Source: an uncultured bacterium (GTDB lineage: Bacteria; Patescibacteriota; Doudnabacteria; UBA920). From it: 64,000 bases of DNA. The stretch is from contig CAVVMJ010000004.1 in assembly GCA_963749445.1 (NCBI GenBank), positions 93,015 to 157,014 on the forward strand, in the 5' to 3' direction. Below, piece after piece: positions 88-60,121 of the stretch. The notes beneath the pieces were generated by a model that made no database searches, was not told the DNA's origin, and was given only the letters and a program-made list of their open reading frames with translations. Within the stretch, counting starts at the first letter, position 1. Each line of letters opens with the position of its first letter. A program made the translations under genes and the position numbers.

Positions 88-1147
88 ATGAAAAACAAAA
101 TTTTTATTTTATTTATCGGCGTGTCCTTGTTGTCCGCCGGATGCAGCCTGTTTGGCGGCGGGCCGGTGGCCACGGGCGTGGCCAAAAGCGTTAACGGCGG
201 AACGGATTGGCAATTTAGCAATACTGTTAAAGCCCCGACTGCCGGGAGTTTGAGCCAGTCCAACATCGCCAAATTGGCGTTTGATCCGCAGAACCGCCAG
301 ATAGTTTACGCTGGAAGTGTAACCGACGGCTTATACAAGTCCGACGATTCCGGTGCCAGCTGGAGCCGGATTTTGTCCAAAATTTCCGTTTACGATTTTA
401 TGGTTAGTCCCGCCGACAGCAAGACCATTTATCGTGGCCGGGATTTTTAACGGCCAGGGCAAGGTTTTAAAAACCGCGGACGGCGGCGCCAGCTGGCAGG
501 AAATTTACAACCAGACGGGCTCGGAAAACGCGGTGAGAGCCATTGATTTGAACCCCGCGGCCGTGACGCAGATGATAATCGGCACAACTTCCGGCGACCT
601 CATTAAGAGTTCCGACGGCGGCCTGAGCTGGCAGCTCGCAAACAGTTTTAACGACCAAATTAACGGCGTGTTCTGGCGCAGCGGCGGCGTGTACGTGCTT
701 TTGCAAAATAAGGGTTTTTACCGCGGTTCAAGCGCGGCGGACAACTTTCAGGCCATTACCACGTCTTTAACCGGAAGCGCCGGGCAGTATAATTTGTATA
801 ACGCCGTGGCTTATGTTTTTAACCAAGCTTATGTTGATCCCGTATCGTCCAGCCTGCTTTACGTTACCACGAGCCATGGCTTGAATAAAAGCACGGACGG
901 CGGCGTAACCTGGGCCGCTGTGGCTTTGCCGACCCAGGCCAGCAACATGAGCCCGCAACCAATAACCGTTGCCCAGACCAGTAGCAATATCGTTTTTACC
1001 AGCATAGGCCCGGTAATTTACAAATCCACCAACGCAGGCAGCACCTGGCAGACCCAGACCATTGCCACCAACGGCTACATCAATTATATTTTAATAGATC
1101 CGGTTTTGCCGCAAATAGATTACGCCGGCGTGTATGTGGCGCAATAA
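88..1147 (+). CDS. BNR/Asp-box (Ycf48-like) repeat lipoprotein, apparently frameshifted near 430-436 (ORFs 88..450 and 353..1147 belong together)
   Basis: Lipoprotein signal MKNKIFILFIGVSLLSAGC; repeated S-x-D-G-G-x-(S/T)-W Asp-box motifs (GGTDWQ, DSGASWS, DGGASWQ, DGGLSWQ, DGGVTWA, AGSTWQ) continue across the frame break; removing one base near 'atttatCgtggcc' restores KTIYVAGIFNGQG. Confidence 0.6.
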
Positions 1148-1907: not shown

Positions 1908-3173
1908 ATGCTTGCCACGATACTTATTTTTATAATAATCCTTGGCGTTCTCATATTCGTCCACGAATTTGGGCATTTTGTGGTGGCCAAAAAAAGCGGG
2001 ATGAAGGTGGATGAGTTTGGGTTTGGGTTCCCGCCCAGGATGTTTGGGATTTATCAGGTTGACGGAAAATGGCGGTGGGTGTGGGGGCATAAAAATCCAT
2101 CGGCGACTCCAACCACCCCGTCCCGACTACGTCGGGACACCCCTCCTCAGCAAGGAGGGGAAGCTCCGCGGTTATCCCAGCAAAACTTCGGAGACTCTTC
2201 CCCTGATAAGGGGGAGTACCTCGCGAAGCGAGGGGAGGGGGTTGGAGATGAAACGGTTTACTCCATCAACTGGATTCCGCTAGGCGGGTTTGTGAAAATC
2301 CGCGGCGAGAATAATGAAAACGAGGATGACCCGCGTTCTTTTATCAACCGGCCGTTTTGGCCGCGGCTGGCTACTTTAGTGGCCGGCGTGTTTATGAATT
2401 TTGTGCTGGCTTGGGTGTTGATGTCAATCGGCGCGGGGATTGGCCTGCCCGCGGCCATCAGCAGTCCCAATGATTTGCCGGCCCACGCGCGTTTGGTTAA
2501 TCCCCAAATCGCCATCTTGGAGGTAATGCCCAATGCTCCGGCGGCCAAAGCCGGGCTAATGTCCGGCGATGTTATTTTGGATATAAATCACCAGCCTTTT
2601 GCCAGCGGCGAGGACATGAGTAATTATGTAAAAACGCACGCCGGCCAGAGTTTTTTATTTGACGTGGACCGCGACGGACAAAAATTATCCGTCAGCGTCC
2701 AGTCAATCGCCAATCCCGGCCCCAACCAGGGTCCAACCGGAATACAGTTAGCCAGCGTGGGCAAGCTGGTGTTCCCTTGGTATTTGGCGCCGTGGGAAGG
2801 GTTAAAGGTTTTGTATATTCAAACTTCCAGTTTCCTTTCGGGTTTGGGCCAGTTGATTACCGGTAAAGTGAGCGTTAGCAATTTAGGCGGCCCGGTAAAA
2901 ATCGCGCAAATAACCGGCCAGGTCCGGGCCATGGGTTTTGATTACCTGCTCCAGTTTGCCGCGTTTTTAAGCATTAATTTAGCGATTTTGAACATCCTGC
3001 CATTCCCGGCGCTAGACGGCGGCCGCGTGCTGTTTTTGATAATTGAAAAAGTCCGCCGCAAGCGCAATAATCAGGTCGTTGAACAATGGGTCAACACCAT
3101 CGGCTTCGCGCTTTTGATTTTGCTGATGGTCTTTGTTACGGCGCATGATGTTTTCAATATTTTTCACAAGTAA
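1908..3173 (+). CDS. rseP: RseP-like site-2 protease (M50 zinc metalloprotease with PDZ) carrying an in-frame palindromic repeat insertion
   Basis: HEFGHFVVAKK HExxH motif at N-term TM helix, PDZ-like segment (ILEVMPNAPAAKAGLMSGDVILDIN), C-terminal LDGG motif; residues ~TPTTPSRLRRDTPPQQGGEAPRL..SPDKGEYLAKRGEGVGD encoded by repeat element at 2109..2245. Confidence 0.85.
   Translation: MLATILIFIIILGVLIFVHEFGHFVVAKKSGMKVDEFGFGFPPRMFGIYQVDGKWRWVWGHKNPSATPTTPSRLRRDTPPQQGGEAPRLSQQNFGDSSPDKGEYLAKRGEGVGDETVYSINWIPLGGFVKIRGENNENEDDPRSFINRPFWPRLATLVAGVFMNFVLAWVLMSIGAGIGLPAAISSPNDLPAHARLVNPQIAILEVMPNAPAAKAGLMSGDVILDINHQPFASGEDMSNYVKTHAGQSFLFDVDRDGQKLSVSVQSIANPGPNQGPTGIQLASVGKLVFPWYLAPWEGLKVLYIQTSSFLSGLGQLITGKVSVSNLGGPVKIAQITGQVRAMGFDYLLQFAAFLSINLAILNILPFPALDGGRVLFLIIEKVRRKRNNQVVEQWVNTIGFALLILLMVFVTAHDVFNIFHK
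2109..2245 (+). repeat. RPE-like modular palindromic element, in-frame copy inside rseP
   Basis: ccaaccaccccgtc..gtcgggacacccctcctcagcaaggaggggaagctccgcg..ctcttcccctgataagggggagtacctcgcgaagcgaggggagggggttgg; nested hairpins and terminal inverted repeat ccaaccaccc/gggggttgg; highly similar to 28275..28407. Confidence 0.85.
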
Positions 3174-7372: not shown

Positions 7373-7474
7373 TGAATGGACGCTGAATTTAACACCAACG
7401 CTGATTGGACGCTGAAGCGTCAAGTTCAGCTCAGCGACCAATCAGCGTACCCATCAGCGACCAATCAGCGGTAT

Positions 7475-17426: not shown

Positions 17427-17433
17427 CTGAAGC

Positions 17434-17531
17434 TTGATGGGCATCTTCGTGTTTCTACGACCGCTTACGATGGTTATCAGTTAACGATAAATTGAAGTTG
17501 GTGGTTGTTTTGGCAAGAAGATGCCCATCAA
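17434..17531. mobile_element. MITE-like 99-bp element, copy 1 (TIR TTGATGGGCATCTTCGTG)
   Basis: ttgatgggcatcttcgtg...cttgccaa motifs...aagatgcccatcaa; intergenic between SPFH gene and rplA leader. Confidence 0.85.
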
Positions 17532-20803: not shown

Positions 20804-20839
20804 TGCCGTTGATTAGTCACTGACGGGTCTGAAAATTTG

Positions 20840-20938
20840 TTGATGGGCATCTTCGTGGTTCCATAAACGCTAACTGATGATTATCGGCTAACTATAAATA
20901 ACGGCCGAAGATTGTTTTGGCAAGGAGATGCCCATCAA
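20840..20938. mobile_element. MITE-like 99-bp element, copy 2
   Basis: ttgatgggcatcttcgtggttccataaacg...ggcaaggagatgcccatcaa. Confidence 0.85.
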
Positions 20939-20970
20939 TCTTAAAACGTACGTCCTTCGTAAATATTTGG

Positions 20971-21928: not shown

Positions 21929-21961
21929 GGTTGATGGTTAATTTTTAGGTTGTGATTTGAG

Positions 21962-22060
21962 TTGATGGGCACCTTCGCTGTTCCACAATCGCTGATTGAT
22001 TGTTGTCGGATAGTGTAGGATTGAGATCGAAGATTGTGTTGGCAAGAAGGTGCCCATCAA
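21962..22060. mobile_element. MITE-like 99-bp element, copy 3 (slightly diverged TIRs)
   Basis: ttgatgggcaccttcgctgttccacaatcg...ggcaagaaggtgcccatcaa. Confidence 0.8.
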
Positions 22061-23972: not shown

Positions 23973-24109
23973 GCGGAGCCTCTCCTCCTATTTATAGGAG
24001 GAGTACCCTGCGTCAGCAGGGGGAGGTGGTATTAATACTTGCCGATTAGTACCACCTCGTCCCGCTTCGCGGGACACCCCTCCTATGCAAGGAGGGGAAT
24101 GCTCCGCGG
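23973..24109. repeat. RPE-like modular palindromic element, intergenic copy (modules in swapped order)
   Basis: gcggagcctctcctcctatttataggaggagtac...gtcccgcttcgcgggacacccctcctatgcaaggaggggaatgctccgcgg. Confidence 0.8.
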
Positions 24110-24136
24110 TTATTCTTAATAAAAAAGTACGGTCTT

Positions 24137-28021: not shown

Positions 28022-29254
28022 ATGAACGAACTCATCAAGCGGCTGGAAAATCTCAAATCCGAAATCTCAAATCTGAAATCCCATTTGGATTTGCCCCAAA
28101 AGGAGCAGAGGATCTTGGAATTGGAAGACAAGATGCAGGTTCCAAATTTTTGGAATGATAATGAAAACGCCCAAAGAATATCAAAGGATTATAACCAGTT
28201 AAAGCTGTTTGTTGATTTTTGGAAAGATTTGGAAAAGGATATCCAGGAAACACTGGATTTGGTTAAAGACACTCCAACCACCCCGTCTGCTTTGCAGACA
28301 CCCCTCCTTGAAAAGGAGGGGAATGCTCCGCATGTATCCCCGAACAAACGCGGAGCCTCTCCCCCTGACAAGGGGGAGTACTCCGCGAAGCGGGGGGAGG
28401 GGGTTGGAGATATAAAAATATCCGATGCGGATTATCTTAGGCAACATACGGAACAGCTGGAGGAACAATACCGCAAAAACCGTTTTGTTGCGCTGCTTTC
28501 CAAAAAATACGACGACCACAACGCAATTTTTTCTCTGCACAGCGGCGCCGGGGGGCTTGACGCCCAGGATTGGGCGGAAATGCTCCTGCGGATGTTTTTA
28601 CGCTATTGTGAACGCCGGGGATTTATTACAGAAATTTTAGAATCAAACCGCGGAGCGGAAGGCGGCATTAAATCGGCTGTTGTGGAAGTTCACGGGCCGT
28701 ATGCTTACGGCTTGCTAAAAAGCGAGGCCGGCGTTCATCGGCTTGTCCGATTGTCGCCGTTTAATCCCGCGCACACCCGCGAAACCTCTTTCGCGCTTTT
28801 GGAAGTTTTGCCGCTTTTGGAAGATGTAGAAAAAATTGACATCGACCCCAAAGATTTAAAAATAGAAGCCAATACCGCCTCTGGCCACGGCGGGCAATCG
28901 GTCAATACCACTTATTCCGCCATCCGGATTACGCATATTCCCACCGGCCTTAAAGTCAGCATCCAAAACGAGCGCTCCCAGCACCAAAACCGCGAAATCG
29001 CCATGAAAATTTTGATGGCTAAGTTGAAAACTTTGGAAGAGGAAAAATTGCAACAGGAAAAACTGGAAATTCGTGGGGAATTTAAATCGGCCGAATGGGG
29101 AAACCAAATTCGCTCCTACGTTATCCATCCCTACAAACTGGTCAAAGACCACCGTACCGGTTTTGAAACCTCAGACCCGGATAGCGTTCTAAACGGTGAA
29201 CTGGACGAGTTTGTGGAAAGATATTTGGAAAAAACCGCGGTGACCGCTGAATAG
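28022..29254 (+). CDS. prfB: peptide chain release factor 2 (single uninterrupted ORF) with in-frame palindromic repeat insertion
   Basis: GGQ (SGHGGQSVNTT), SPF motif (RLSPF) = RF2; start MNELIKRLENL; residues TPTTPSALQTPLLEKEGNAPHVSPNKRGASPPDKGEYSAKRGEGVGD encoded by repeat 28275..28407. Confidence 0.9.
   Translation: MNELIKRLENLKSEISNLKSHLDLPQKEQRILELEDKMQVPNFWNDNENAQRISKDYNQLKLFVDFWKDLEKDIQETLDLVKDTPTTPSALQTPLLEKEGNAPHVSPNKRGASPPDKGEYSAKRGEGVGDIKISDADYLRQHTEQLEEQYRKNRFVALLSKKYDDHNAIFSLHSGAGGLDAQDWAEMLLRMFLRYCERRGFITEILESNRGAEGGIKSAVVEVHGPYAYGLLKSEAGVHRLVRLSPFNPAHTRETSFALLEVLPLLEDVEKIDIDPKDLKIEANTASGHGGQSVNTTYSAIRITHIPTGLKVSIQNERSQHQNREIAMKILMAKLKTLEEEKLQQEKLEIRGEFKSAEWGNQIRSYVIHPYKLVKDHRTGFETSDPDSVLNGELDEFVERYLEKTAVTAE
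28275..28407 (+). repeat. RPE-like modular palindromic element, in-frame copy inside prfB
   Basis: ccaaccaccccgtc..gacacccctccttgaaaaggaggggaatgctccgc..gcggagcctctccccctgacaagggggagtactccgcgaagcggggggagggggttgg. Confidence 0.85.
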
Positions 29255-29469
29255 ACGCTGATATGTACGCTGATCTGTCGCTGAAACCCAATGTGTCCAT
29301 CCCGGAATTTTTTGCGCTGATGATTATCATGGGTCGCAAAAAATATTCGGGATCCAGGCACACGTTTCTTTCCCTTTTGCCAATTTTTTGGTACAATGTA
29401 CTTATAAACATCGCTTTGAAATAAATACTGACCGGCTGATAAGCGTATCAGCTGATAAGCTTGTAAGCT

Positions 29470-30111
29470 ATGATCAAGTTTGAAAATGTCGGCAAGCATT
29501 ATGACGGCGTCAAGGCTTTGGATGGCATTGATTTGCGAATCCACCACGGCGAGTTTATTTCGCTGGTGGGCATGAGCGGCGCGGGAAAAACCACATTGCT
29601 GCGCCTGATTATCGGCGAAGAGCATTTGGATACTGGCAGGATTTTGATTGACGATATAGATATTACCAAAGTACCCAAGCGCGATTTGCCTTATTTGCGC
29701 CGAAAAATCGGCATGGTCTTCCAAGACATCAAGCTGTTGCCGCGCCGGACGGCTTTTGAAAACGTGGCTTTTGCTATGGAGGTCTGTGGGCACAAAAAGG
29801 AAAAAATCGCCCAAGACGTGCCGAAAATTTTGGATTTAGTCGGCCTTTTGCATAAAACCGACCATTTTCCTTACCAAATGTCCGGCGGGGAAAAACAGCG
29901 CACAGCCATTGCGCGCGCTTTAGCCCATAGGCCGGTGCTGCTTTTGGCTGACGAACCCACAGGCAATTTGGACGAGGTCAACTCCAACGAAGTTTTGGAT
30001 TTGTTGCTAAAGATTAACGAGCTGGGCACCACGGTTATTCTGGCCACCCACGCCTCGGATTTAGTCAACAGAATCAACAAGCGGGTGATTACCATGGAGG
30101 GGGGAGGATAA
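29470..30111 (+). CDS. ftsE: cell-division ABC ATPase FtsE
   Basis: MIKFENVGKHYDG..GMSGAGKTT..LSGGEKQR..LLLADEPTGNLD. Confidence 0.9.
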   Translation: MIKFENVGKHYDGVKALDGIDLRIHHGEFISLVGMSGAGKTTLLRLIIGEEHLDTGRILIDDIDITKVPKRDLPYLRRKIGMVFQDIKLLPRRTAFENVAFAMEVCGHKKEKIAQDVPKILDLVGLLHKTDHFPYQMSGGEKQRTAIARALAHRPVLLLADEPTGNLDEVNSNEVLDLLLKINELGTTVILATHASDLVNRINKRVITMEGGG

Positions 30112-30192
30112 TTAAGCAGCAGCAGACGGGTAAATACGAGTTATAACACAAGCGGCGCCAACGATTAACGAGTAACAAAATTTAAAATATCG

Positions 30193-30292
30193 GAAATTGC
30201 GAGCCCTAAGTGCACCCGAAGGGCGCGGCAATCCCTCTCTTTAATAGGATTGCTTCGTCGCCAGACAAAGCCCTGGCTCCTCGCAATTTCAC
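30193..30292. repeat. GAAATTGCGAG hairpin-repeat family copy (between ftsE and ftsX)
   Basis: ggaaattgcgagccctaagtgcacccgaagggcgcggcaatccc...ggattgcttcgtcgcc...ctcctcgcaatttcac. Confidence 0.7.
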
Positions 30293-30302
30293 TCCTTGAT
30301 TT

Positions 30303-31220
30303 ATGCTGGATTCCATCTCATTTTTGCGCGTCATAAAAACCGGCTTCACCAATTTTTGGCGCAACCTGTGGCTGTCGGCGGCCGCCACCATGGTTATGAC
30401 CGTAACCCTGGTGATTTTTGCCATTATGTTTTTGATGTTCGGCCTCACCAGCTACTCCATCAAGACCATCCAGAATACCGTGGACATCAGCGTTTACTTT
30501 AAAGTCGGTTTGGATGAAGGCCAGATTATGAAAATCAAAGGTGATTTGCAAAACGATTCGCGTATCAAAGACGTCGTTTACACTTCCCAGCAACAGGCGT
30601 TTGACCAGTTCAAGCAGCGCCACGCCGGCGATCCTTTAATTCAGGAGTCGCTCAACGAGCTCACGGAAAATCCTCTGCCCGCGACTTTGAACATCAAAAC
30701 TTATAATCTTTCCGACTATCCGGCCGTGTCGCAGGAATTGCAGGGTTCGGATTATAAAAATTTTATTGACAAAGTGAATTTTGAGGACAACCGTGCGGTC
30801 ATTGACCGTTTGGACAAAATTTTGCGCTTTATTACCACATTCGGCGTGGGACTGGTCGCGGTGTTTTCGCTGATCGCGATTTTGGTAATTTACAATACCA
30901 TCACCCTGACCATTTACAACCGCAAGGAAGAAGTGGAGATTATGCGGCTGGTGGGAGCGACTAACTGGTATATCCGCGGGCCGTTTTTGGTGGAAAGCTT
31001 GCTTTACGCCATCGGTTCCACCATTTTGACCGGCCTGGTATTTGCCCCGGTATTTAGCCAGGTTTTGCCGCGGATTGCCAATTACGTTAACCCGCAGCTC
31101 AACGTCCTGCATTCCAATTTTTTCAATTTTTGGTATTTGGAGCTTTTACTTTTGGTGATTTCCTTGTTGTTGGCCGTGATTTCCACCATGCTGGCAATCC
31201 GGAAGTATCTTAAAATATAG
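30303..31220 (+). CDS. ftsX: cell-division permease-like protein FtsX
   Basis: 4 TM helices, large periplasmic loop; follows ftsE. Confidence 0.85.
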   Translation: MLDSISFLRVIKTGFTNFWRNLWLSAAATMVMTVTLVIFAIMFLMFGLTSYSIKTIQNTVDISVYFKVGLDEGQIMKIKGDLQNDSRIKDVVYTSQQQAFDQFKQRHAGDPLIQESLNELTENPLPATLNIKTYNLSDYPAVSQELQGSDYKNFIDKVNFEDNRAVIDRLDKILRFITTFGVGLVAVFSLIAILVIYNTITLTIYNRKEEVEIMRLVGATNWYIRGPFLVESLLYAIGSTILTGLVFAPVFSQVLPRIANYVNPQLNVLHSNFFNFWYLELLLLVISLLLAVISTMLAIRKYLKI

Positions 31221-31221
31221 T

Positions 31222-31345
31222 TGTATAGTTGTAAGGTATAAGGCGTGGCGGCCGGTACGGTTATTGGGATATGGTCTTGGGTGACTTATGCCCTATTACT
31301 TATTACTACACTGGCCGCTATTCCTTATAACCTATGACTTTCAGG
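31222..31345. repeat. large hairpin repeat, GGCGGCCAGTAC family (copy d)
   Basis: ggcgtggcggccggtacgg...cactggccgctattcc. Confidence 0.65.
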
Positions 31346-31528
31346 GGAATTTGACAAACTTATAGCATCGGGTATACTAACAAAGAGCCCAAATAGCGAC
31401 TCTCGCGAACCGGGGCTTTTTTTGTTAGTAGTAATCCCAAATAAACAAATCAACACAAATATACAAATACTGGCAACCCGCAGCAATTTGTATATTTGTT
31501 TATATTTGTATATTTGCGAACACTACAT

Positions 31529-31974
31529 ATGAAGGTAATATTTATCAAGGATACACCGGGCCAGGGAAAAGGGGTGAAATCAAGGATGTCAGCGAAGGGT
31601 TTGCCCAGAATTTTTTGATACGCAAAGGCTTGGCTCAAGTCGCGACCGCCGATATCCAGGCCAAGATCGCCAAGGAAGCCAAAGAGGCGGAAAATAAGAA
31701 ATTAAAAGAAATTGGGAAATTGCAGGCTTTGAAATCGGAACTGGAAAAGCGTACCTTTACGGTTAAAGTCAAAGTCGGGGAAAAGGGCCAGATTTTCGGC
31801 AGCGTGCAGGAAAAGGATATTGCGGCCGCTGTGTCGGCTAAGCTTAATTATCCGCTGGAAAAGAACCAGATTAACATCGAAACTCCGATTAGGCAAACCG
31901 GCGAACATCAGGTCAAAGTAAAATTGGGCGGCGGTATTATTGCCGTGATCAAGATTAATGTGGAAGCGATGTAA
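31529..31974 (+). CDS. rplI: 50S ribosomal protein L9, apparent -1 frameshift in gggaaaagggg run (~31565-31575)
   Basis: frame A MKVIFIKDTPGQGK then frame B RGEIKDVSEGFAQNFLIRKGLAQ... matches L9 N-terminus across shift; ORF track shows only 31615..31974. Confidence 0.8.
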
Positions 31975-32054
31975 TCTTTCGCGGATACGCGGATATCACG
32001 GATAACACCGACCGCGAAATCCGCGCCATCTGCGTATCCGCGAACCAAACAATT

Positions 32055-33038
32055 ATGGATAACAACCTACCGCAAACTAATCTGCCAAGCAACAATCAGC
32101 TGCCGGAAAAACCCTCCATTTGGGTCACTAACCCGCACTTAAAAATGCTTTTGCTGGTTTTGATTTTTGTGTTTTTGGGTTGCGGGATTTTTTTGGTGGT
32201 ATTACAGCAATTGCAAATGAATTATCGGAAAACCATAAATGTTTCGGACTTGCCTAAACATCAGGTCAAACAAATTGTCTTGGCCGACGGCCGTCTGCAG
32301 GTGGACAACCCTAAAGAAGGGGACACAGTAGGCCAAACTTTTACTGTTTCCGGTTATGCGCAGGGGTGGTTTGAGGCCACGATCGCGGTAAAAGTTTTTG
32401 ACAACAACGAAAATCTACTTTACCAAAACAGTGTAATGGCTTCCGGGGACAATTACGGCCAGCCCGCGCCGTTTAACGGTAAGATAACTTTAACCGGTAC
32501 TTCAACCGCACCGGCCGGGAGGATTGAGTTTAATGATTATTCCCAAAAAGACGGGAATTTGGCATACCAGAAAGTCGTTCATATCAAGTTTGGTGATTAT
32601 AAGGCCATTGACACGACGGGGTGGAAAACCTATAAAAATGACCAGTATGGGTTTGAGTTACAGTACCCGCCAGATTGGAATTTTGAAATGATGCCCAGAT
32701 ACAATAAAGACGGTTCCGTTGCAGTCGGTTTATTTGATTTTGCTTTTACCCATCAGGGCGCTCTTGTCCGAATGTTGGTGTCGCCGTTGGGTGGTAGCGC
32801 ATACAGCCCGAGCCAACTTAAAAAAACTGAAAATTTAGACATGAATGGAAGCACAGTGAGAAAGAGTGAATTCGGAGATACAAATGGAACCTATGGCATT
32901 ATTGTTGATCAGTTTAACAACACGCAATACCCGCTTTTTGAAATTTGGTTCGGTCCGATTAATGCGAATGAGTATTTAAGTTTAAAAGATATTGCCCAAT
33001 TTGATCAAATGTTTTCAACTTTTAAATTTACCAAATAA
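32055..33038 (+). CDS. hypothetical membrane-anchored protein with Ig-like (Gmad2-like) beta domain
   Basis: single N-terminal TM; GDTVGQTFTVSGYAQGWFEATIAVKVFD beta-sandwich-like segment. Confidence 0.35.
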   Translation: MDNNLPQTNLPSNNQLPEKPSIWVTNPHLKMLLLVLIFVFLGCGIFLVVLQQLQMNYRKTINVSDLPKHQVKQIVLADGRLQVDNPKEGDTVGQTFTVSGYAQGWFEATIAVKVFDNNENLLYQNSVMASGDNYGQPAPFNGKITLTGTSTAPAGRIEFNDYSQKDGNLAYQKVVHIKFGDYKAIDTTGWKTYKNDQYGFELQYPPDWNFEMMPRYNKDGSVAVGLFDFAFTHQGALVRMLVSPLGGSAYSPSQLKKTENLDMNGSTVRKSEFGDTNGTYGIIVDQFNNTQYPLFEIWFGPINANEYLSLKDIAQFDQMFSTFKFTK

Positions 33039-33108
33039 TATTTAAGATTCCCGCTTTCGCGGGAATGACAAATTAAAAATTGAAAATTAAGAATTAAAAA
33101 ATTTATCT

Positions 33109-35425: not shown

Positions 35426-35434
35426 TTCAACCAG

Positions 35435-35533
35435 TTGATGGGCATCTTCTTGCCAACACAATCCTCGACCGTTGTTTGTCATTATTCGATGATTATCAGT
35501 TGGCGATTGTGGAACCACGAAGATGCCCATCAA
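35435..35533. mobile_element. MITE-like 99-bp element, copy 4 (opposite internal orientation)
   Basis: ttgatgggcatcttcttgccaacacaatcctcgacc...gtggaaccacgaagatgcccatcaa. Confidence 0.85.
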
Positions 35534-35669
35534 TCGAAAGTTAAAATTATGGACATTATCCAGGTAAAAAATCTTACCATCCGCCTTCGCTCCCGACTTC
35601 GCCAAGGCTTCGTCGGGTAAGAAAGCTTCGGCGGATCTCTGCCGGATTTTTAAAATTTTCCGATTTATT

Positions 35670-39332: not shown

Positions 39333-39379
39333 CTTAACAAATTTGTGTTATACTAAATTAAATGGTTTGGTCTGCGGTC

Positions 39380-39478
39380 TTGATGGGCATCTTCATGGTT
39401 CCACAAACCTCAATCAATAACTATCCGGTAATGATAAATAACGGTCGAGGGTTGTATTGGCATGAAGATGCCCATCAA
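39380..39478. mobile_element. MITE-like 99-bp element, copy 5
   Basis: ttgatgggcatcttcatggttccacaaacc...ggcatgaagatgcccatcaa. Confidence 0.85.
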
Positions 39479-39499
39479 GCGAGACAGAGTTTAATCAGA

Positions 39500-39901: not shown

Positions 39902-39934
39902 GATTGAGATTATGGAGTTATATTATATTTATGT

Positions 39935-40033
39935 TTGATGGGCATTTTCGTGGTTCCACAAACCGCAATTAATAATTATTGGATGACGATAAACAACGGT
40001 CGAGGATTGGGTTGACACGAAGATGCCCATCAA
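39935..40033. mobile_element. MITE-like 99-bp element, copy 6 (abuts the 5' end of the desulfurase gene)
   Basis: ttgatgggcattttcgtggttccacaaaccg...gacacgaagatgcccatcaa. Confidence 0.85.
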
Positions 40034-40065
40034 AGCTATGTATTTTTAAAATTCTTATAATCATT

Positions 40066-42655: not shown

Positions 42656-42669
42656 TTTAGCGTGTTATG

Positions 42670-42768
42670 TTGATGGGCATCTTCGTGCCAATGCAACCCT
42701 CGACCATTGTTTATCGTCGGCCGATAATTACCGTCTGACGTTTGTGGAACCACGAAGATGCCCATCAA
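42670..42768. mobile_element. MITE-like 99-bp element, copy 7
   Basis: ttgatgggcatcttcgtgccaatgcaaccctcgacc...gtggaaccacgaagatgcccatcaa. Confidence 0.85.
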
Positions 42769-42785
42769 TCGTAAACCCTATTTAT

Positions 42786-45929: not shown

Positions 45930-47378
45930 TTAAGCCAAATCTTTCAAATCATCCATGACTATTTTTGTCAGGCTGGCTCTTTCGGAATGGATAGCTTTGT
46001 CCAGTTGGTCGACCGGAACCCATCGAAAACCCATAAACTCGTGATGATCAACATAAACTTTGTCATCCGCGCCTAAAAATTTAAAATAGGCAATATTTTG
46101 AACCTGCCCGATGTTTTTATGCCTGCGGTTGTGCCAAAATTTACGCGCGGCGTTATTCCAAATGTAAGTGTTGGTATGCGGGGAGATTTTGATAAATTCT
46201 AAATTTTTTATTCCGGTTTCTTCCAGGGCTTCTCTTTTTGCCGCTTGTATTAGATTTTCTGTGCCGTCTATTCCTCCTTGCGGCAACTGCCAGTAATTTG
46301 CTCTCTTTAAATTTTCTTTTGTCGTCATAACATCGACGTGGAAATTTTTGGGGTCGCGCTGGCAAACCAGGACTTCATTTTTTTTATTAAGAATGGCTAT
46401 CGCGATGTTCGGCCTTAAGGGCAGGTTCGCAAAAACTTTATAGTGCCACAGGGCGGATGCCAGGCCGAAAGTCGCGTTAATAATTCTGGGCAGGCGCTTG
46501 GGCTGGGTGAACAGGCGCCAGAGCCATTCCAGGCCCGTTCGGCGCAAAAAACGCGGCGGCTGGGGCTGTTTGCCGGCGATGTAGTCAAATGTTCCGCCCA
46601 GGCCGACAACCAGTTTTATGGGCAAATCCGGCAAGTTTTTGGCAATCCACTTTTCCTGCCTGATTGGACCGAAGGCCACAAACAAGAGGTCAGGCGCCGC
46701 CTTTTTTATGTCCTCGATAATGGTCGGGTTATCAGGGTTTTTGTTTGACCACCCGGCCACCTTGAGTTTACTAGCTGATTTGCTTATTAGCTTATCAGCT
46801 GCTAATTTTGGTGTGTCGCCGAATCCGCCTAAAAGGTAAACTGATAAATTATTATCAACAGCCAGTTTTGCCAAATCCCAAACCAAATCTGCGCCGGGGA
46901 TTTTTTCTTTCATACCACCTCCCCCGCCTGCGGCGGGTACTCCTCCTATGATAGGAGGAGAGCTCCGCGTGTCATCCGAGGATAGCTGCGGAGCGTCCCC
47001 TCCTAAAGTAGGAGGGGTGGCCGCGTTAGCGGACGGGGTGGTATTGTAAATAAATTTTGGATAAAAAACTATCGCCGCCAAACTGTATTTAATTTGCCAC
47101 GCTGCCTGCAGAATTTTTCCCCAGTAGGATTTGGCGGTAAGAGGAATTGATAAATATCGGGCGGCCCAAAACAAACCAATGCCGTCGGGCACGGCAATGT
47201 CAGCGGAATTTAAAATTTGCATCACTTCCGGGTCCAGCAACGCGGCGCGTAAAAACTCGGAGTACGGCGTGATTAGCCAGGTTTTTTGCCCGTTTTTTAT
47301 CTGCTGGCGTAAGCGTTCAAGCAATTCGGCTTTCGTCAGCGCGTCAATTTTCAATCCCGCGATGTCGATTTTGTCCAT
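45930..47378 (-). CDS. WecB/TagA/CpsF-family glycosyltransferase fused to C-terminal NUDIX hydrolase, with in-frame repeat insertion (start MDKIDIAGL; ORF track extends to 47750)
   Basis: TagA-like LITPYSEFLRAALLDPEVMQILNSADIAVPDGIGLFWAAR; Nudix box GGIDGTENLIQAAKREALEETGI; residues ATPPTLGGDAPQLSSDDTRSSPPIIGGVPAAGGGGG encoded by repeat 46915..47042. Confidence 0.6.
   Translation of the reverse strand: MDKIDIAGLKIDALTKAELLERLRQQIKNGQKTWLITPYSEFLRAALLDPEVMQILNSADIAVPDGIGLFWAARYLSIPLTAKSYWGKILQAAWQIKYSLAAIVFYPKFIYNTTPSANAATPPTLGGDAPQLSSDDTRSSPPIIGGVPAAGGGGGMKEKIPGADLVWDLAKLAVDNNLSVYLLGGFGDTPKLAADKLISKSASKLKVAGWSNKNPDNPTIIEDIKKAAPDLLFVAFGPIRQEKWIAKNLPDLPIKLVVGLGGTFDYIAGKQPQPPRFLRRTGLEWLWRLFTQPKRLPRIINATFGLASALWHYKVFANLPLRPNIAIAILNKKNEVLVCQRDPKNFHVDVMTTKENLKRANYWQLPQGGIDGTENLIQAAKREALEETGIKNLEFIKISPHTNTYIWNNAARKFWHNRRHKNIGQVQNIAYFKFLGADDKVYVDHHEFMGFRWVPVDQLDKAIHSERASLTKIVMDDLKDLA
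46915..47042 (-). repeat. RPE-like modular palindromic element, in-frame copy inside tagA-NUDIX gene
   Basis: reverse complement reads ccaccccgtccgctaacgcggccacccctcctactttaggaggggacgctccgc...cgcggagctctcctcctatcataggaggagtac...gcgggggaggtgg; same translation frame as copies in rseP/prfB. Confidence 0.8.
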
Positions 47379-47431
47379 AATTGAATTATATCCTATTTTA
47401 GCCTGATTTGATAGCATTTTTTTGATCTTTC

Positions 47432-47725
47432 GTGTATAATCCCAATATGGAATCCATAGGAAAAATCGCCAAATTTCCATCAGCAAAACCAAAAAAAGAC
47501 GTCCATCTCCACTCACCGGCCCACCTTTTGGCCGATGAATTATGCCACAAGCTGAATGACAAAAAACATTTTGGTTTTTATTTAAAGATGGCGACTTTGT
47601 ACGATCACAATTGGCTGCGCGGTTTGGCCGGGCAGGTGCTGGAAGGCAAAAATGTGGCCACGCCCGGAAGGTTGTTTGCGTATTTGATAAAGAAGCATAA
47701 CCAAGAGTCAAGAAGCAAGAATTAA
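47432..47725 (+). CDS. hypothetical small protein
   Basis: ORF only. Confidence 0.25.
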   Translation: MYNPNMESIGKIAKFPSAKPKKDVHLHSPAHLLADELCHKLNDKKHFGFYLKMATLYDHNWLRGLAGQVLEGKNVATPGRLFAYLIKKHNQESRSKN

Positions 47726-47730
47726 GAGTC

Positions 47731-48207
47731 ATGATATTACCTATTCTCACTTATCCCAATGAAGTTTTAAGGAAGCCGACCGAGCCGGTGAGCTTTCCTT
47801 TGTCTAAAGATATTATCAAGCTGACCCAGGACATGATAGACACGGTGCGCAAGGCTGAAGGCATCGGCTTGGCCGCGCCGCAGGTCGGCCGGAGCGTCAA
47901 AGTGATTATCATTAACCTGGAAAAAAACGGCGTGCCGATTTTTCCGCTTTACAACGCGCGCGTAATGTCAAAGGGTTTTAAAAAGGTGGAAGTTGAGGAA
48001 GGCTGTCTGTCCATTCCCGGAGTTTACGGTATGGTCAAGCGGCCAAAAAAAGTCAAAATCCAGGCGCAAAATATGGAAGGCAAAAAAATTACTTTTACCG
48101 ACGACGGCTGGATTTCCCGAGTCTGCCAGCATGAAATTGACCACATCGACGGCATACTCATCATCAATTTGATAAAAAAATACACCCAGGGCGAGGAAAA
48201 AGTTTAG
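47731..48207 (+). CDS. def: peptide deformylase
   Basis: GIGLAAPQVG, EGCLSIPG, QHEIDHIDG. Confidence 0.9.
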   Translation: MILPILTYPNEVLRKPTEPVSFPLSKDIIKLTQDMIDTVRKAEGIGLAAPQVGRSVKVIIINLEKNGVPIFPLYNARVMSKGFKKVEVEEGCLSIPGVYGMVKRPKKVKIQAQNMEGKKITFTDDGWISRVCQHEIDHIDGILIINLIKKYTQGEEKV

Positions 48208-48328: not shown

Positions 48329-48865
48329 ATGAAATTCATAAAGGATTTATTAATTTTTGAAATCCAGACCACGGGACAGGATGTGGACAAAGACAACGTT
48401 ATCCAACTGGCGGCGATTTTGCTGGACAAAGACAATTTATTGGAAAAGAACAATTATAATTCCTACATCCGTGTCAGTTTTTTGGACAGCGTGATTAACG
48501 AGCACAGCAAACTCCTGCATTGCGATTATGAAAGTTTAAAGCGCAGCCCGAAAGTTTATGACGCAATAAAGCAATTTCATAATAAATTCGGCACCAATCT
48601 TTTACTCGCTGCCAATAACTTAAACAAACTTTTATTTTTAAAAGCCGGTTTTAAAAAAGCCGCGGTGCCGTTTGATTACGACCCGCATATTCTGGAATTA
48701 TGGACGCTCGGTTACGTCTATACCCTAAATTACGGATTAAAAAAGATGCCGACTTTTACCACGTTTATGGATTATTTTAAGCTCAAGCAAAAGCGGCCTT
48801 GGGACGCCATGGAACAAGTCAGGCTGGAAGCGGAGGTGTTTAGGAAGATAATTAAGGAAGTTTAA
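48329..48865 (+). CDS. DEDDh 3'-5' exonuclease-like paralog with degenerate catalytic residues
   Basis: aligns with downstream paralog but DxE -> FEIQ and H...D -> WDAMEQ. Confidence 0.5.
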   Translation: MKFIKDLLIFEIQTTGQDVDKDNVIQLAAILLDKDNLLEKNNYNSYIRVSFLDSVINEHSKLLHCDYESLKRSPKVYDAIKQFHNKFGTNLLLAANNLNKLLFLKAGFKKAAVPFDYDPHILELWTLGYVYTLNYGLKKMPTFTTFMDYFKLKQKRPWDAMEQVRLEAEVFRKIIKEV

Positions 48866-48935
48866 AAAGTTCTCAGTTCTCAGTTCTCAGTTATCAGTTA
48901 TCAGTACTCAGTTATCAGTACTCAGTGCTCTGCTG
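48866..48935. repeat. tandem heptamer-like repeats (CTCAGTT/ATCAGTT/ACTCAGT)
   Basis: ctcagttctcagttctcagttatcagttatcagtactcagttatcagtactcagtgctc. Confidence 0.7.
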
Positions 48936-48969
48936 TGTACTGTGAACTGATAATTAAGCAATACAACCC

Positions 48970-49536
48970 ATGGATTTTCACAAAGACATCCTGCTCATAG
49001 ACACCGAATTTTCCGGGTTTGACGTGCCTAAAAAACACGATTTGCTGCAAATCGCGGCCGTGCTTTTGGATAAAAAAACCTTAAAAGAAAAAAAGTCTTT
49101 TAATATTTATATCAAACCGGCCAAATGGAAAACCCGCGACCAGGAATCAATGGCCGTAAATAAAATTACTTTTGATATGGTTAAAGGCGCGCCGCCGCTG
49201 AAAAAGGCCATTAGGAAATTTAACCGCGCGTTTCCGCACAACGTCACCCAGGCTTTTTATGTCGGGTACAACGACAAAAGGATTTTATTGGACGCTTATA
49301 AAAGAGCGGGGCTAAAGTGGCCGTTTGATTACCATTATTTTGATTTGTGGGGATTGTTTTATGCCGTGCTGGCCAAAAATAATCGGTTAACATCCAAAAA
49401 AGATTTTGCCGGGTTTGGTTTGGAAAGTTTGATAAAAATGATGAATATTAAGATAGATAAAAACCAGATGCACGACGCGTTGGTTGACTGCAGGTTGGAG
49501 GCGGAAATATTGAGGAGAGTAATAGCCGCTGAATAA
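48970..49536 (+). CDS. DEDDh 3'-5' exonuclease (DnaQ/RNase T-like)
   Basis: Exo I LLIDTEFSG, Exo II YVGYNDKRILL.. , Exo III HDALVDCRLEAEIL. Confidence 0.7.
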   Translation: MDFHKDILLIDTEFSGFDVPKKHDLLQIAAVLLDKKTLKEKKSFNIYIKPAKWKTRDQESMAVNKITFDMVKGAPPLKKAIRKFNRAFPHNVTQAFYVGYNDKRILLDAYKRAGLKWPFDYHYFDLWGLFYAVLAKNNRLTSKKDFAGFGLESLIKMMNIKIDKNQMHDALVDCRLEAEILRRVIAAE

Positions 49537-49667
49537 ACGCTGACCCATTCGACGATGCTCAGGGTCACCCCGAGTATCGTCGAGGGAAGACGGGTACGCT
49601 GAATGGACGCTGAAAAGCGCGATTCAGCGACAAATCAGCGTAGTAATCAGCGACAAATCAGCGGGAT

Positions 49668-50590
49668 ATGAAAATTATATTTTTCGGCACGGCGAACGTG
49701 GCGCTGCCGATTTTGGAAAATTGAATAAGCAACATCAAGTTTTGGCCGTGGTCACCAATCCCGATGCCGCGGTCGGCCGGTCGCAAAGTCTAGAGGAAAC
49801 GCCAGTTTCGGCTTTGACTAGGGATTTAAAATTGCCCACATTTAAGCCGGAAACGGTTAAAGACAACCAGGAATTCATCGGCCAGCTAAAAAATCTCGGA
49901 GCGGATGTGTTTGTGGTCGTGGCTTTCGGCACCATTATGCCGGCGGAAGTCATAAATATGCCACCGTTAAAAACCATAAACGTGCATTTTTCGGCGCTGC
50001 CCAAATACCGCGGGCCGTCCCCCATCCAGTCCGCTTTGCTCAACGGCGACAAGCAAACCGGCACCACAATTTTTATTTTGGATGAACAAATTGACCACGG
50101 GCCGCTGCTGGCCCAAAAAATCGCGGACATTGAACCCGATGACAATTATTTTACGTTATCGGACCGGCTCGCCCACGTGTCCGCGGATTTATTGATGGAA
50201 ACATTGTCCGATTATCAGCCGGGCAAAATAACTCCCCTGCCCCAGGATGAATCGCAGTCATCGTATACTAAAATTATTACCAAGCAGGCCGGAAAAATTG
50301 ACTGGACCCAATCAGCCACTCAAATTTACAACCAGCTGCGGGCTTTTTACATTTGGCCAGGGATTTGGACAACGTGGAAGGGCAAGAAAATTAAAATTCT
50401 TGATATTCATCCGACGGGAAGTTCGTCGGATGCCGGAAATCCCGGCACAGTACTGCCAGGAGGCAGGGTTTTGTGCGGCGGCAACACCATCCTTCAAATC
50501 AAAACGCTCCAACCGGAGGGCCGGAGCGAGATGGATATTGACAGTTTTTTGAATGGGTACCGGGATTTTGTTGGGAGCAAACTGGAATAG
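49668..50590 (+). CDS. fmt: methionyl-tRNA formyltransferase, apparent -1 frameshift at ggaaaattg (~49716-49722)
   Basis: frame A MKIIFFGTANVALPILE then frame B (L)NKQHQVLAVVTNPDAAVGRS...HFSALPKYRGPSPIQSALLNGD; joined matches Fmt N-terminus. Confidence 0.85.
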
Positions 50591-50647
50591 CCTAATTGAA
50601 AGATTTAAAGATTGAAAATTGAAAGACTGCGGAAATTAAGGATTTTT

Positions 50648-50815
50648 TAAAATTTTATTGGTGTCATCCCGGAATTTTTCGCGTACCGGATTATTATCGG
50701 CCGCGAAAAATATCCGGGACTCAGTATACGGTATCTGGATTCCAGATATTTTTGATATTTTTGGTTGCCGATGATTTTCCAATTTTAACCAAAAATTCCG
50801 GAATGACACAAGGGC
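50648..50815. repeat. CCGGAATTTTT hairpin-repeat family, composite copy
   Basis: gtgtcatcccggaatttttcgcg...cgcgaaaaatatccgggactcag...ccaaaaattccggaatgacacaag. Confidence 0.7.
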
Positions 50816-50824
50816 GGATTTTTT

Positions 50825-51616
50825 TTATTTAAGGTATTTCTGTTTGTTTATCAAGTGCTCGTCGTAAGTCCCGGCAAACACAGCCTGGCCGGTTTTGGGG
50901 TCGGTCAAAAAGTAAAAGTAATTGCTGGCGGTCGGATACAGGGCAGCCATAATGGAAGACAGTGAAGGGTCGCAAATCGGCCCGGGCGGCAGGCCAAGAT
51001 TGTTGTAGGTGTTGTAATCCGGCAGGCTTTGTTGTTGGCTAAAGGCTACGGTAGCGTCGCTCTGTAGAGGCATTTTGGCGTTGAGTCGGTTATAAAAAAC
51101 CCCCGAGATCATCGCGCGGTCTTCGGTTTTGCCTGACTCTTTTTCTATGATTGAGGCCAGCGTAACAATTTGGTAGGCCGTCATTTTTTGCTTGGCCGCC
51201 TGCTGTTGCATATCAGCCGTAAACTTTACGCTAAAGTTATCCACCATTTTTTTAATGATTTCACTGGCCTGAAGGCTTTCATCGGTCTGGTAAACTGCCA
51301 CGCGGTAAGTGTCCGGAAACAAGAAGCCTTCCAAACCGGCGGTTTTTGGCTTGGACGACAGGATTGGGTAAGCGGAGACATCAAACTTTCCAGCAGCGTT
51401 TAAAAAATCGCTTCTTTTTAACAGGCCCTTTTGTTCCAGGTAATCGGCGATTTGCGCGTTAGTCCAGCCCTCGATAATCGTTATTTGCGTTTCCGGCGCT
51501 TTGGCTTCTTGCCGCTGTTGCCTGAGGTTTTGCCTGTATCGGAAAAGGCCGTAGCCAATGAGGCTACCGCCAACAATCAGAAATATAAAAACGGTAATGG
51601 CGATTTTTTTAATCAT
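50825..51616 (-). CDS. mltG: endolytic murein transglycosylase MltG/YceG
   Basis: N-terminal TM; YceG-like core (..GLEGFLFPDTY.., ..LASIIEKES..). Confidence 0.85.
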   Translation of the reverse strand: MIKKIAITVFIFLIVGGSLIGYGLFRYRQNLRQQRQEAKAPETQITIIEGWTNAQIADYLEQKGLLKRSDFLNAAGKFDVSAYPILSSKPKTAGLEGFLFPDTYRVAVYQTDESLQASEIIKKMVDNFSVKFTADMQQQAAKQKMTAYQIVTLASIIEKESGKTEDRAMISGVFYNRLNAKMPLQSDATVAFSQQQSLPDYNTYNNLGLPPGPICDPSLSSIMAALYPTASNYFYFLTDPKTGQAVFAGTYDEHLINKQKYLK

Positions 51617-52053
51617 TCCCCGATAATCTTAAGTCGCACTTCGCGCGTTCGGCCGCCGTCGGTTTCCACAAAGAAGATGCTTTGCCTGCCGCCGAGCACC
51701 AGCTGGGCTTTTTCCACAATCAGGCTTTCCGACGAGCCGAGCAAAAAAGCCTTAACATGCGCGTGGCCGTTGGAGCGCTCGTTGGGCGCCACGTTTTGGC
51801 GCACTTCAAACAGGTCGTGGCTGTAGCTGATATCCAGCGGCACCAGGCGGTACAGGGTTTTCATGATGTCCTGCATCAGCAGAGGCTCGTTGTGGTTAAG
51901 GCGCACCGCGGCTGTGGTGTGCGGGCAAAAGATTACCGCGATCCCCTCTTTGACGCCCGATTCAATCACCGCGGTTTGGACATAGGAGGTAATATCCACC
52001 AGTTCAAATTGCTTTTTGGTTTCCAGATTGAGTTTTTTAGAGTAGGTTTTCAT
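51613..52053 (-). CDS. yjbQ: YjbQ/UPF0047 family protein
   Basis: ..IFCPHTTAAV..NE...D...H..HV.. conserved pattern. Confidence 0.7.
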   Translation of the reverse strand: MKTYSKKLNLETKKQFELVDITSYVQTAVIESGVKEGIAVIFCPHTTAAVRLNHNEPLLMQDIMKTLYRLVPLDISYSHDLFEVRQNVAPNERSNGHAHVKAFLLGSSESLIVEKAQLVLGGRQSIFFVETDGGRTREVRLKIIGE

Positions 52054-52181
52054 AGGGTTTTGATTTATTTTTAAACGATTTTATTTAGCCAAATTGCGAT
52101 ATTCATCACCATTGATGATCTGAAACAATTTTTTTGCGAGCCAGACATTTCACTTTAAAGCGTTGGGTTAATTATAGCACA

Positions 52182-53835
52182 TTAAGGTTTGGCGGCGGGA
52201 ATATTTTGGTTTTGCGCCAAATCCAGCAAAGTGGTTTTGGTGAGGTTGGTATGGATGGGGACGGTAAAGATGAATTTTGAGCCTCTTCCCTCCCCCGTGC
52301 TTTCAGCCCAGATTTTGCCTTTGTGCTGCCCAATTACTATTTTGGCCACGTAAAGGCCGAGTCCCAGTCCGGCGCTTTGGTTAATTGACCCCTTGCCGCG
52401 GGTGTATTTTTCAAAAATCAGCCCCTGTTCTTCGCGCGCAATGCCCTTGCCGGTGTCGGCAACTTCAAAACGCAAATCATTGCCGTCTTGCCGCAGCTGA
52501 ATGCGGATAGTGCCTTTTTTGGTGTATTTAATCGCGTTATCAATTAAATTATTCATAACCTGCCGCAGTTTTTCCTTGTCCGCCATAATTTTGGGTAAAT
52601 GGTTTACGGGCGGCTGGTAAACAAGTTCCAGATGTTTTTCCTGGGCAATCGGCTGGAGCTGTTCCAAAGTAATATTTGCCAGTTCGGCCACGTCGGTTTC
52701 CTCAAACAAAAATTCCATTTTGCCGCGCTCAATGCGCGAAACGTTAAGCATATCGTCAATTAAGGAAATCAGCGAATTGTTGGTGCGGAAAGTTTTTTCT
52801 ATAATCTCCTTGGTTTTCCGCCTCCAGCTTGCCGTAATCTCCGGCCAAAATCGCGGCCAAATACCACTTAACCGTGGCCGGCGGGGTGCGCAGCTGATGC
52901 GAGGCGATGGAAATAAACTCCGCCCGCGCCTGGTCCAGGATTTTAAGCTGCTCGTTGGCGGCTTCCAATTGTTTGGTCAAAATTTGCAATTGCTCTCTTT
53001 GTCTTACCTCAATAAGTACGCTTTTGATCAAGAATATGCTGAATATTAAAATGAGAAGGCCGATAATGCTTTGCAGTATCAAATTTGTGAGGTCTTTTGC
53101 CAAAAGTATTTGCCACAAGCTGGTGAATAATAGGAAGAAAGAAGCGATTTCCGTAGCAATAACTTTTATATTTAACAATTTATGCCTCAGAATCGCATAT
53201 GAAGTCGCGATAATGGTGGGCATAACGTAGAATGGCGAATAGATGGTGAGGGATGAGTTATTAAATAGTACTATAGCCAGATAGAGGAAGGATAAGATAA
53301 AGGTGTACGTTAGAGTCAGGCCGATTGAAATCGATCTCCACTGTTTTTTTTCCAGTCCAACGGAAGCTATGTATTTTTTGATCATCAGGTAAAAAGTCAA
53401 CAGGGAAGCGCTAAGAATGGAGAAGCCGTAGTAAGGCATCAGTATTCCCGTTTGCGGCAACGGAATATTATTAACAACGCCCACCGTTTTAAAAATAAAA
53501 GGCGTCAACGGCAGGATTGTTAGTGAACCGCCCCAGACCAAAAGCAGTAAGAGATCTCTTTTTTTGACAATAAATTCCTGTTTTGGAAAATTATAGACAA
53601 AGAGAAAAAATGAAAAAATAGTCGGTATGGCAAAAACCATTACCAAGCGGATCCATTGCAAAGATTCCATTGGATTTATTGTCAGGGCCAAATAATTGCA
53701 AATGAGCCAGCCGCAGTTGGACAGCGAGTGAATCAAAAATAAAACATTGGTTTTACTGCTGGTATCGTGCAAGTAAACCAAAAAACCTAAATAGACAATA
53801 ATGAATGCCGACAGGCAGGTTAAAAAAAGATTCAT
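52182..53835 (-). CDS. sensor histidine kinase (7TM sensor + HisKA + HATPase), apparent frameshift near 52780-52790 splitting ORFs 52756..53835 and 52182..52751
   Basis: H-box SIASHQLRTP; after shift ..NNSLISLIDDMLNVSRIERGKMEF.. X-box; N/G1/G2 boxes (NLIDNAIKYT, DTGKGI, GLGLGL). Confidence 0.75.
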
Positions 53836-58021: not shown

Positions 58022-58027
58022 CGGTTG

Positions 58028-58126
58028 TTGATGGGCACCTTCGTGCCAATACATCACTCGACCGTTATTTATCACTAACCGATAATTATCAGTTGGATTT
58101 TGTGGAACCGCGAAGGCGCCCATCAA
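58028..58126. mobile_element. MITE-like 99-bp element, copy 8 (diverged right TIR)
   Basis: ttgatgggcaccttcgtgccaatacatcactcgacc...gtggaaccgcgaaggcgcccatcaa. Confidence 0.8.
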
Positions 58127-58365
58127 ACTCTAGGGACTGCTGCACTAACCTGTTGGTAAAGTTAATCGATAAACGGCAAAATTATCGATAAACGCTAATG
58201 TTTACCGGCGCTTGATGATTAACTGATTAGCATAAAAGCAAAACTGATTTCATAAACGAAATTAGTAACGAAAAAATACACAAAATCGCCTGTAGCTACA
58301 GGCGATTTTGATTTATCCACCAACAGATATATGCACCAGTCCCAAACTCTAAATTCATCCATCCA

Positions 58366-60005: not shown

Positions 60006-60021
60006 TTATTATAGTTGTTAG

Positions 60022-60121
60022 TTGATGGGCATCTTCGTGCGGCTATAACAGTTAGCGGATGGTTATCAATTGGCGTATCCATCATCACAAACTAAACTAT
60101 AACCTCGAAGATGCCCATCAA
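60022..60121. mobile_element. MITE-like 99-bp element, copy 9
   Basis: ttgatgggcatcttcgtgcggctataac...cctcgaagatgcccatcaa. Confidence 0.85.

Follow-up and report, generated by a model that had tools for sequence, protein, structure and literature searches.

The rplI gene shown here, which encodes ribosomal protein bL9, cannot be read in a single frame, and three further genes in the same stretch of DNA are interrupted as well. The question is whether these interruptions belong to the organism, as signals for recoding or as lesions of genes that are being lost, or whether they belong to the assembly. The window, i.e., the whole stretch of 64,000 nucleotides that was analyzed, lies on a 198,939-bp contig of a Patescibacteria metagenome-assembled genome (MAG). 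It has a G+C content of 46.5% and no ambiguous bases. The nearest loci in a scan of genome contigs are those of unclassified or Candidatus Doudnabacteria MAGs (Patescibacteria) and are at most 71% identical. Four frameshifted genes had been reported in the preliminary description, and a frame break is indeed visible at all four loci: a gene for a BNR/Ycf48-like lipoprotein, rplI, fmt (methionyl-tRNA formyltransferase), and a gene for a sensor histidine kinase. Repair of one base per gene gives proteins of 352, 148, 307 and 550 aa, respectively, in which Pfam matches continue uninterrupted across every junction. Each gene carries a single lesion, and both halves keep full homology. The rplI, fmt and kinase sites are A/T runs, as the description had said of three of the four, and the BNR site is not a homopolymer. 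The density of breaks is about four per 64 kb. We think it likely that all four are single-base sequencing or assembly errors and not biology. The coordinates are collected in Table 1.

Table 1. Interrupted genes, break sites, control sites, a neighboring gene and repeated sequences in the 64,000-nucleotide window.
Feature	Position	Strand	Remarks
BNR/Ycf48-like lipoprotein gene	88..1147	+	Start ATG 88; split into 120-aa and 237-aa pieces
Extra base T432 or C433 in TA[T]CGTG	432..433	+	Causes the BNR frameshift; non-homopolymer
rplI (ribosomal protein bL9)	31529..31974	+	Start ATG 31529; broken after codon 14
A4 run inside G3-A4-G4 (31564-31574), rplI	31567..31570	+	One more A restores ...GQGKRGEIKD...
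def (peptide deformylase)	47731..48207	+	Intact; deformylase motifs EGCLS and HEIDH in translation
fmt (methionyl-tRNA formyltransferase)	49668..50590	+	Start ATG 49668; broken after codon 17
A4 run in fmt	49717..49720	+	A5 in Logan L003 and in closest relative, which keeps frame; intact version is that of Logan
C4 run in fmt, control site	50240..50243	+	C3 in Logan breaks its fmt; window intact
A6 run in yceG/mltG, control site	51094..51099		A5 in Logan; window intact
Sensor histidine kinase gene (7TM-HisKA-HATPase)	52182..53835	-	Split inside HisKA domain; pieces 52756..53835 and 52182..52751
T4 run in kinase gene (A4 on coding strand)	52814..52817		T3 in Logan L003, one 550-aa frame; intact version is that of Logan
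46-nt motif GCAGCRATTTGTATATTTGTTTAKATTTGTATATTTGCGAACACTA	40-85, 31480-31525		Inverted copy at 31428-31468
Paired CAGCGACNNATCAGCG boxes, 23 nt apart	7432-7470, 49625-49663		
Further CAGCGACNNATCAGCG boxes	7399-7414		
Further CAGCGACNNATCAGCG boxes	29268-29283	-	
~140-nt element in rseP	2106-2249		
~140-nt element in prfB	28271-28411		
~140-nt element in 606-aa ORF 45930-47750	46901-47042	-	
~140-nt element, partial copy	23973-24115		Intergenic
~100-nt palindromic elements	17430-17531, 20836-20944, 21958-22060, 35431-35539, 39376-39484, 39931-40039, 42666-42774, 58024-58132, 60018-60067		Nine sites, mostly intergenic

No fifth frameshift was found in the window. Between 24.1 and 41.3 kb, where the syntenic relative L044 (17.5 kb) could be compared, its proteins each map in a single frame, with L9 as the exception. 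A screen with the ORFs of all fetched relatives, which covered 31 kb of the window, flagged the BNR gene only. Other overlapping ORF pairs on the same strand have ordinary start codons or belong to separate Pfam families, and ftsE is intact. Six split-gene candidates (19445/19714, 20971/21503, 22462/22949, 27463/27917, 53837/54985 and 60118/60968) proved to be either ordinary neighboring genes or non-genes. A codon-usage frame plot was too noisy for locating frameshifts.

A second assembly of this DNA is available in the Logan contigs of the public run ERR10755942. Judged from the sequences, these contigs are of the same organism as the window. Three of them, L001 (window 29892-33070), L004 (37521-44281) and L005 (2144-7458), are 100% identical to it over 15,255 bp. 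All discordances fall within a fourth, the 4-kb contig L003 (4,067 bp, window 48876-52944), and the other 15 kb agree perfectly. L003 differs from the window by one base in the length of four homopolymers and by no substitution. Indel heterogeneity, which the preliminary description had named as the sign of sequencing error, is thus what the two assemblies display, with 4 indels and 0 substitutions over the 4.07 kb compared. Every one of the four sites is in frame in one assembly and out of frame in the other, and each assembly has two of the intact versions. The window is broken in fmt and the kinase gene; Logan is broken elsewhere in fmt and in yceG/mltG, a minus-strand gene of 263 aa that is intact in the window and split into 189 + 82 aa in Logan. 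Since errors do not repair genes, both assemblies must hold errors, and homopolymer lengths are noisy in the underlying data. Discordance that is confined to indels, is free of substitutions and breaks other genes in each assembly reads as technical noise, not as strain divergence.

The two fmt sequences illustrate this point. The window reads GAAAATTG where L003 reads GAAAAATTG, and a 0-frame stop (TGA, 49722-24) follows just past the A4 run. With one A added, the 307-aa product has the Pfam domains Formyl_trans_N at 1-179 and Formyl_trans_C at 204-299. The closest relative, L006, has CTGGAAAAATTGAAC, read as CTG GAA AAA TTG AAC, i.e., an A5 run, and fmt is intact in relatives L006-L008 with a match over residues 1-307. 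The intact def gene lies 1.5 kb upstream in the same orientation, separated from fmt by a single gene (48329-48865), and its presence is consistent with a formylation pathway that is in use. For the kinase, the motif gcggaaaaccaagg is the reverse complement of 52808-52821, and removal of one T gives the 550-aa protein with an unbroken Pfam HisKA match at 303-371. This shift had been placed near 52785; it is present in the sequence, and the position was about 30 nt off. No kinase orthologues were found in the fetched loci of relatives. The intact length in Logan demonstrates an artefact in fmt and in the kinase gene.

The same four differences could also be taken as an indel polymorphism within the population, in which alleles of fmt, yceG and the kinase gene coexist and the assemblers chose differently among them. 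The different pair of broken genes in each assembly would fit such a reading. However, 4 indels with 0 substitutions in 4 kb, and no difference of any kind in another 15 kb, are unlike diverging strains, and each of the four differences is in a homopolymer. Neither haplotype would, moreover, have a working fmt despite the intact def. Coexisting alleles are a very improbable explanation.

It is probable that the window assembly and the Logan assembly share reads. An exact contig look-up of the frr, rseP and def ORFs returned no record, and the frr and rseP proteins came from NCBI/ENA only. The left end of L001 (29892, GGGG-AAAAA) and the right end of L003 (52944, T4) are at homopolymers, as would fit length variants left unresolved in the reads. 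Several of the examined Logan contig ends lie in or beside short repeat elements. We suspect that the window assembly is of long-read origin, on the basis of the 199-kb contig and the indel-only discordance. As general context, MAG pipelines that use long reads only admit residual indel errors (PMC12313526).

The rplI break presents a different picture. The 0-frame reaches a stop at 31616-18, and the other 119 codons continue in the -1 frame to the end at 31974. With one A added, the gene encodes MKVIFIKDTPGQGKRGEIKD... (148 aa), with Pfam L9_N at 1-43 and L9_C at 65-147. A search at E<=1e-10 gave 1088 L9 homologues, and the best 120 of these, at up to 81% identity, are full-length proteins of 147-194 aa that carry both L9 domains. 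The sole exception among these 120 is the 114-aa fragment P0011, which comes from the same genome. The GKRG motif at the repaired junction is also present in homologues P0007, P0008 and P0010. At the DNA level, relatives L044 and L045 read CAG GGC AAA AAA GGG GAA and relative L046 reads CAA GGG AGA AAA GGC GAA, all in frame. The comparison with orthologous loci that had been proposed earlier thus finds intact genes in relatives for rplI, as it does for fmt and BNR. The protein collection held no intact L9 from the same organism, and the A4 run is identical in Logan contig L001. Since the two assemblies probably share reads, this agreement makes A4 the majority call only and is not proof that it is true. 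None of the four errors that can be demonstrated is common to both assemblies, so an rplI error, if shared, would be of a different, systematic kind. The purine block G3-A5-G4 would be a plausible place for such a miscall.

The break in the BNR gene is of yet another kind. Its 0-frame ends at a stop at 448-450, and the homologous reading goes on in the +1 frame to 1147. The extra base was placed by alignment to six intact homologues of about 350 aa, and also to the DNA of relative L047, which is 78% identical, comes from another sample and was reached via frr. The relative has ATTTA-CGTC where the window has ATTTATCGTG; in codons, ATT TAC GTC corresponds to ATT TAT C GTG. Homologues read K-T-I-Y-V/A-A/S-G-I at this junction. 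The repaired protein aligns end to end with the ~350-aa homologues, and its Pfam Sortilin-Vps10/PSII_BNR match (82-196) spans the junction. Among the matches listed, nearly all homologues are about 350 aa long and at most 66% identical, and the only 100%-identical entry is the 237-aa fragment from the same genome. Logan gave neither a fragment nor an intact copy of BNR, whether the two repaired versions were looked up exactly or a short junction peptide was used as the query. The earlier idea of homopolymer miscalls thus holds for fmt and the kinase gene, both intact in Logan, and it does not extend in the same way to rplI, where both assemblies have A4, or to BNR, which is non-homopolymer and absent from Logan. 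For rplI and BNR we infer that the breaks are artefacts too.

These features leave some room for real lesions at two of the sites. In that case, rplI and/or BNR would carry genuine and very recent frameshifts, fixed or dominant in the population as incipient losses, and the fmt and kinase breaks would still be errors. The presence of A4 in both assemblies favors this, as do the lack of an intact rplI or BNR allele of the organism in any collection and the BNR insertion, which is atypical of homopolymer error. The rplI gene had been called essential and indispensable, and these words are too strong. The bL9 protein is non-essential in E. coli (PMC4399890) and is naturally missing in several Patescibacteria classes (PMC10943839, PMC10221324), which also makes a real loss easier to accept. 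On the other hand, the rplI ORF is otherwise perfectly conserved, with about 80% identity to intact homologues and all domains intact, and relatives within the clade keep L9 (best 120 of 1088 homologues). The data set itself yields one-base indel errors at about such a density, and agreement between assemblies that probably come from the same reads is not independent. Signs of decay, namely multiple disabling lesions or relaxed constraint, were not seen in the four genes; each has one lesion and full-length domains once repaired. Real decay, which the preliminary description had offered as an alternative, therefore shrinks to a minor possibility for rplI and BNR and does not apply to the fmt and kinase breaks, which Logan does not reproduce. 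Genuine lesions in rplI and/or BNR appear unlikely, although they deserve more weight than coexisting alleles.

The other alternatives offered earlier were programmed frameshifting and transcriptional slippage. Under this reading, rplI would be expressed through -1 ribosomal frameshifting on G_GGA_AAA, and the other genes through frameshifting or slippage. In the rplI 0-frame, G_GGA_AAA (31566-31572) formally matches X_XXY_YYZ in full, but such a heptamer results automatically when one A is lost from GGG-AAAAA, and the window has 18 copies of GGGAAAA. A -1 shift would yield GKRG, as in homologues, yet no shift is needed in the listed homologues. The need for a frameshift is not conserved either among the best 120 L9 homologues or in the relatives' DNA, which is in frame. 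When the 79-121 nt that follow the rplI and fmt sites were folded, no stimulatory RNA structure stood out, and stability did not exceed that of shuffled sequences (z +0.23 to +0.88). The other genes fit even less well: fmt is without an X_XXY_YYZ heptamer (G_GAA_AAT), and BNR and the kinase gene would need +1 shifts and have no known shift-prone motif at their breaks. Transcriptional slippage needs a homopolymer of about 8 nt or more. The breaks have no long A/T tract (A4, A4, T4 and nothing at BNR), and A/T runs of 3-4 nt are too short for it. Moreover, the fmt and kinase breaks are missing from the second assembly. In view of the lack of conservation and of a stimulatory structure, and of runs no longer than 3-4 bases, we regard recoding as extremely improbable.

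A special form of recoding can be imagined for rplI, in which the break would be real and expressed by -1 frameshifting on the heptamer within an L9-sensing feedback loop. In E. coli, frameshifting rises on loss of L9 (PMC4399890, PMC6815119), which makes such a loop conceivable because ribosomes without bL9 slip more readily. Low L9 would then cause more frameshifting and thereby more L9, a mirror image of the autoregulation of RF2 by prfB. We give this loop almost no credence.

We therefore return to errors in the assembly as the preferred explanation of all four breaks. An indel-prone metagenome assembly would have left single-base consensus errors at four sites. At rplI, a systematic miscall in G3-A5-G4 would have been passed to both assemblies by their common reads. 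The real BNR, rplI, fmt and kinase genes would be intact in the organism, and no special decoding would be needed. Points against this explanation are the A4 run that both assemblies have in rplI, the BNR insertion outside any homopolymer, and the confinement of all discordances to L003. The contig, with an indel error in about every 16 kb, should then be flagged for quality. Without polishing, this MAG would be an untrustworthy source of gene calls, of pseudogene counts and of inferences of a "missing essential gene", and rplI, fmt, the kinase gene and BNR would best be annotated as intact or low-quality and not as pseudogenes. A genuine rplI lesion would add one small observation on the continuing loss of bL9 in Patescibacteria.

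Several repeated sequences lie upstream of the genes discussed here. The 46-nt motif has just two copies in the window (0 expected), which end 2-3 nt before the ATG of the BNR lipoprotein gene and of rplI. The two genes probably share it as a promoter or operator and would then have very short leaders. They are also two of the four frameshifted genes; the naive chance of this is about 0.003, the comparison is post hoc, and no mechanism is seen. The paired CAGCGACNNATCAGCG boxes end 4-5 nt before the starts of fmt and of a gene at about 7476, with 6 matches in the window against 0.01 expected. The boxes also occur upstream of rplI in relative L044, and as a promoter or operator motif they may be common to the clade. 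Upstream of many genes the DNA is AT-rich, with no obvious Shine-Dalgarno sequence.

Other repeats are found within genes and between them. A GC-rich hairpin element of about 140 nt (CCCCTCCT...AGGAGGGG, CCCCTGAyAAGGGGGAG, CTCGCGAAGCGAG) stands in frame within three unrelated protein genes. It keeps a constant orientation relative to the host gene and adds about 45 residues, e.g., ...TPPQQGGEAPRLSQQNFGDSSPDKGEYLAKRGEGVGD... DNA identity between copies is 70-80% (about 79% for rseP vs prfB). Relatives are without the insert: RF2 has 363 aa in L044 and 410 aa here, and the RseP of L047 is uninterrupted. The element recalls the Rickettsia palindromic elements that are inserted into ORFs. A palindromic family of about 100 nt (TTGATGGGCATCTTCGTG ... 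CACGAAGATGCCCATCAA) occupies nine sites, and there are more short repeat families, including GTAGCAAGGTATAAGGTGTGGCGGCCAGTAC, GACCCGTTCGGCAATGCTCAGGGTCACCCTGAGC, TGTCATCCCGGAATTTTT...AAAAATACCCGGGAT and GCAATCCC...GGGATTGCTTCGTCGGATGCACTCCTCGCAATTTCC. The repeat load of the window is unusually high for a small genome. A tRNA scan and an Rfam search at the gathering score gave no matches in the whole 64 kb.

Several known systems can be compared with the four breaks. Like -1 frameshifting in dnaX and IS elements, rplI has an X_XXY_YYZ heptamer exactly at the break; unlike these, it has no stem-loop or pseudoknot stimulator and no conservation, and the other three sites are without a slippery motif. 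The +1 frameshift of prfB in RF2 autoregulation is the case of a translation-factor gene that truly needs frameshifting, but the BNR and kinase breaks have nothing like CUU_UGA_C. In this window, prfB itself (ATG 28023 to 29254; RF2, with PCRF and RF-1 domains) forms one ORF and lacks the programmed +1 site that is usual for this gene. Rescue by slippage in endosymbionts likewise concerns breaks in A/T runs of presumably needed genes, but the tracts here are 3-4 nt and not about 9 or more. The loss of bL9 in Microgenomatia and Saccharimonadia, which are of the same phylum, indicates that this protein can be lost. The gene is absent there, whereas here rplI is complete except for one base, and close relatives have it intact. 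Spurious split genes also arise from residual homopolymer and indel consensus errors of long-read or flow-based (meta)genome assembly. The present case differs from typical errors of this kind in that the runs are short (3-6 nt), the BNR site is non-homopolymer and the rplI break is common to both assemblies. It shares with them single-base indels, one per gene, in ORFs that are otherwise intact and have intact orthologues, as well as the same irreproducibility at two sites and a second assembly with similar errors of its own.
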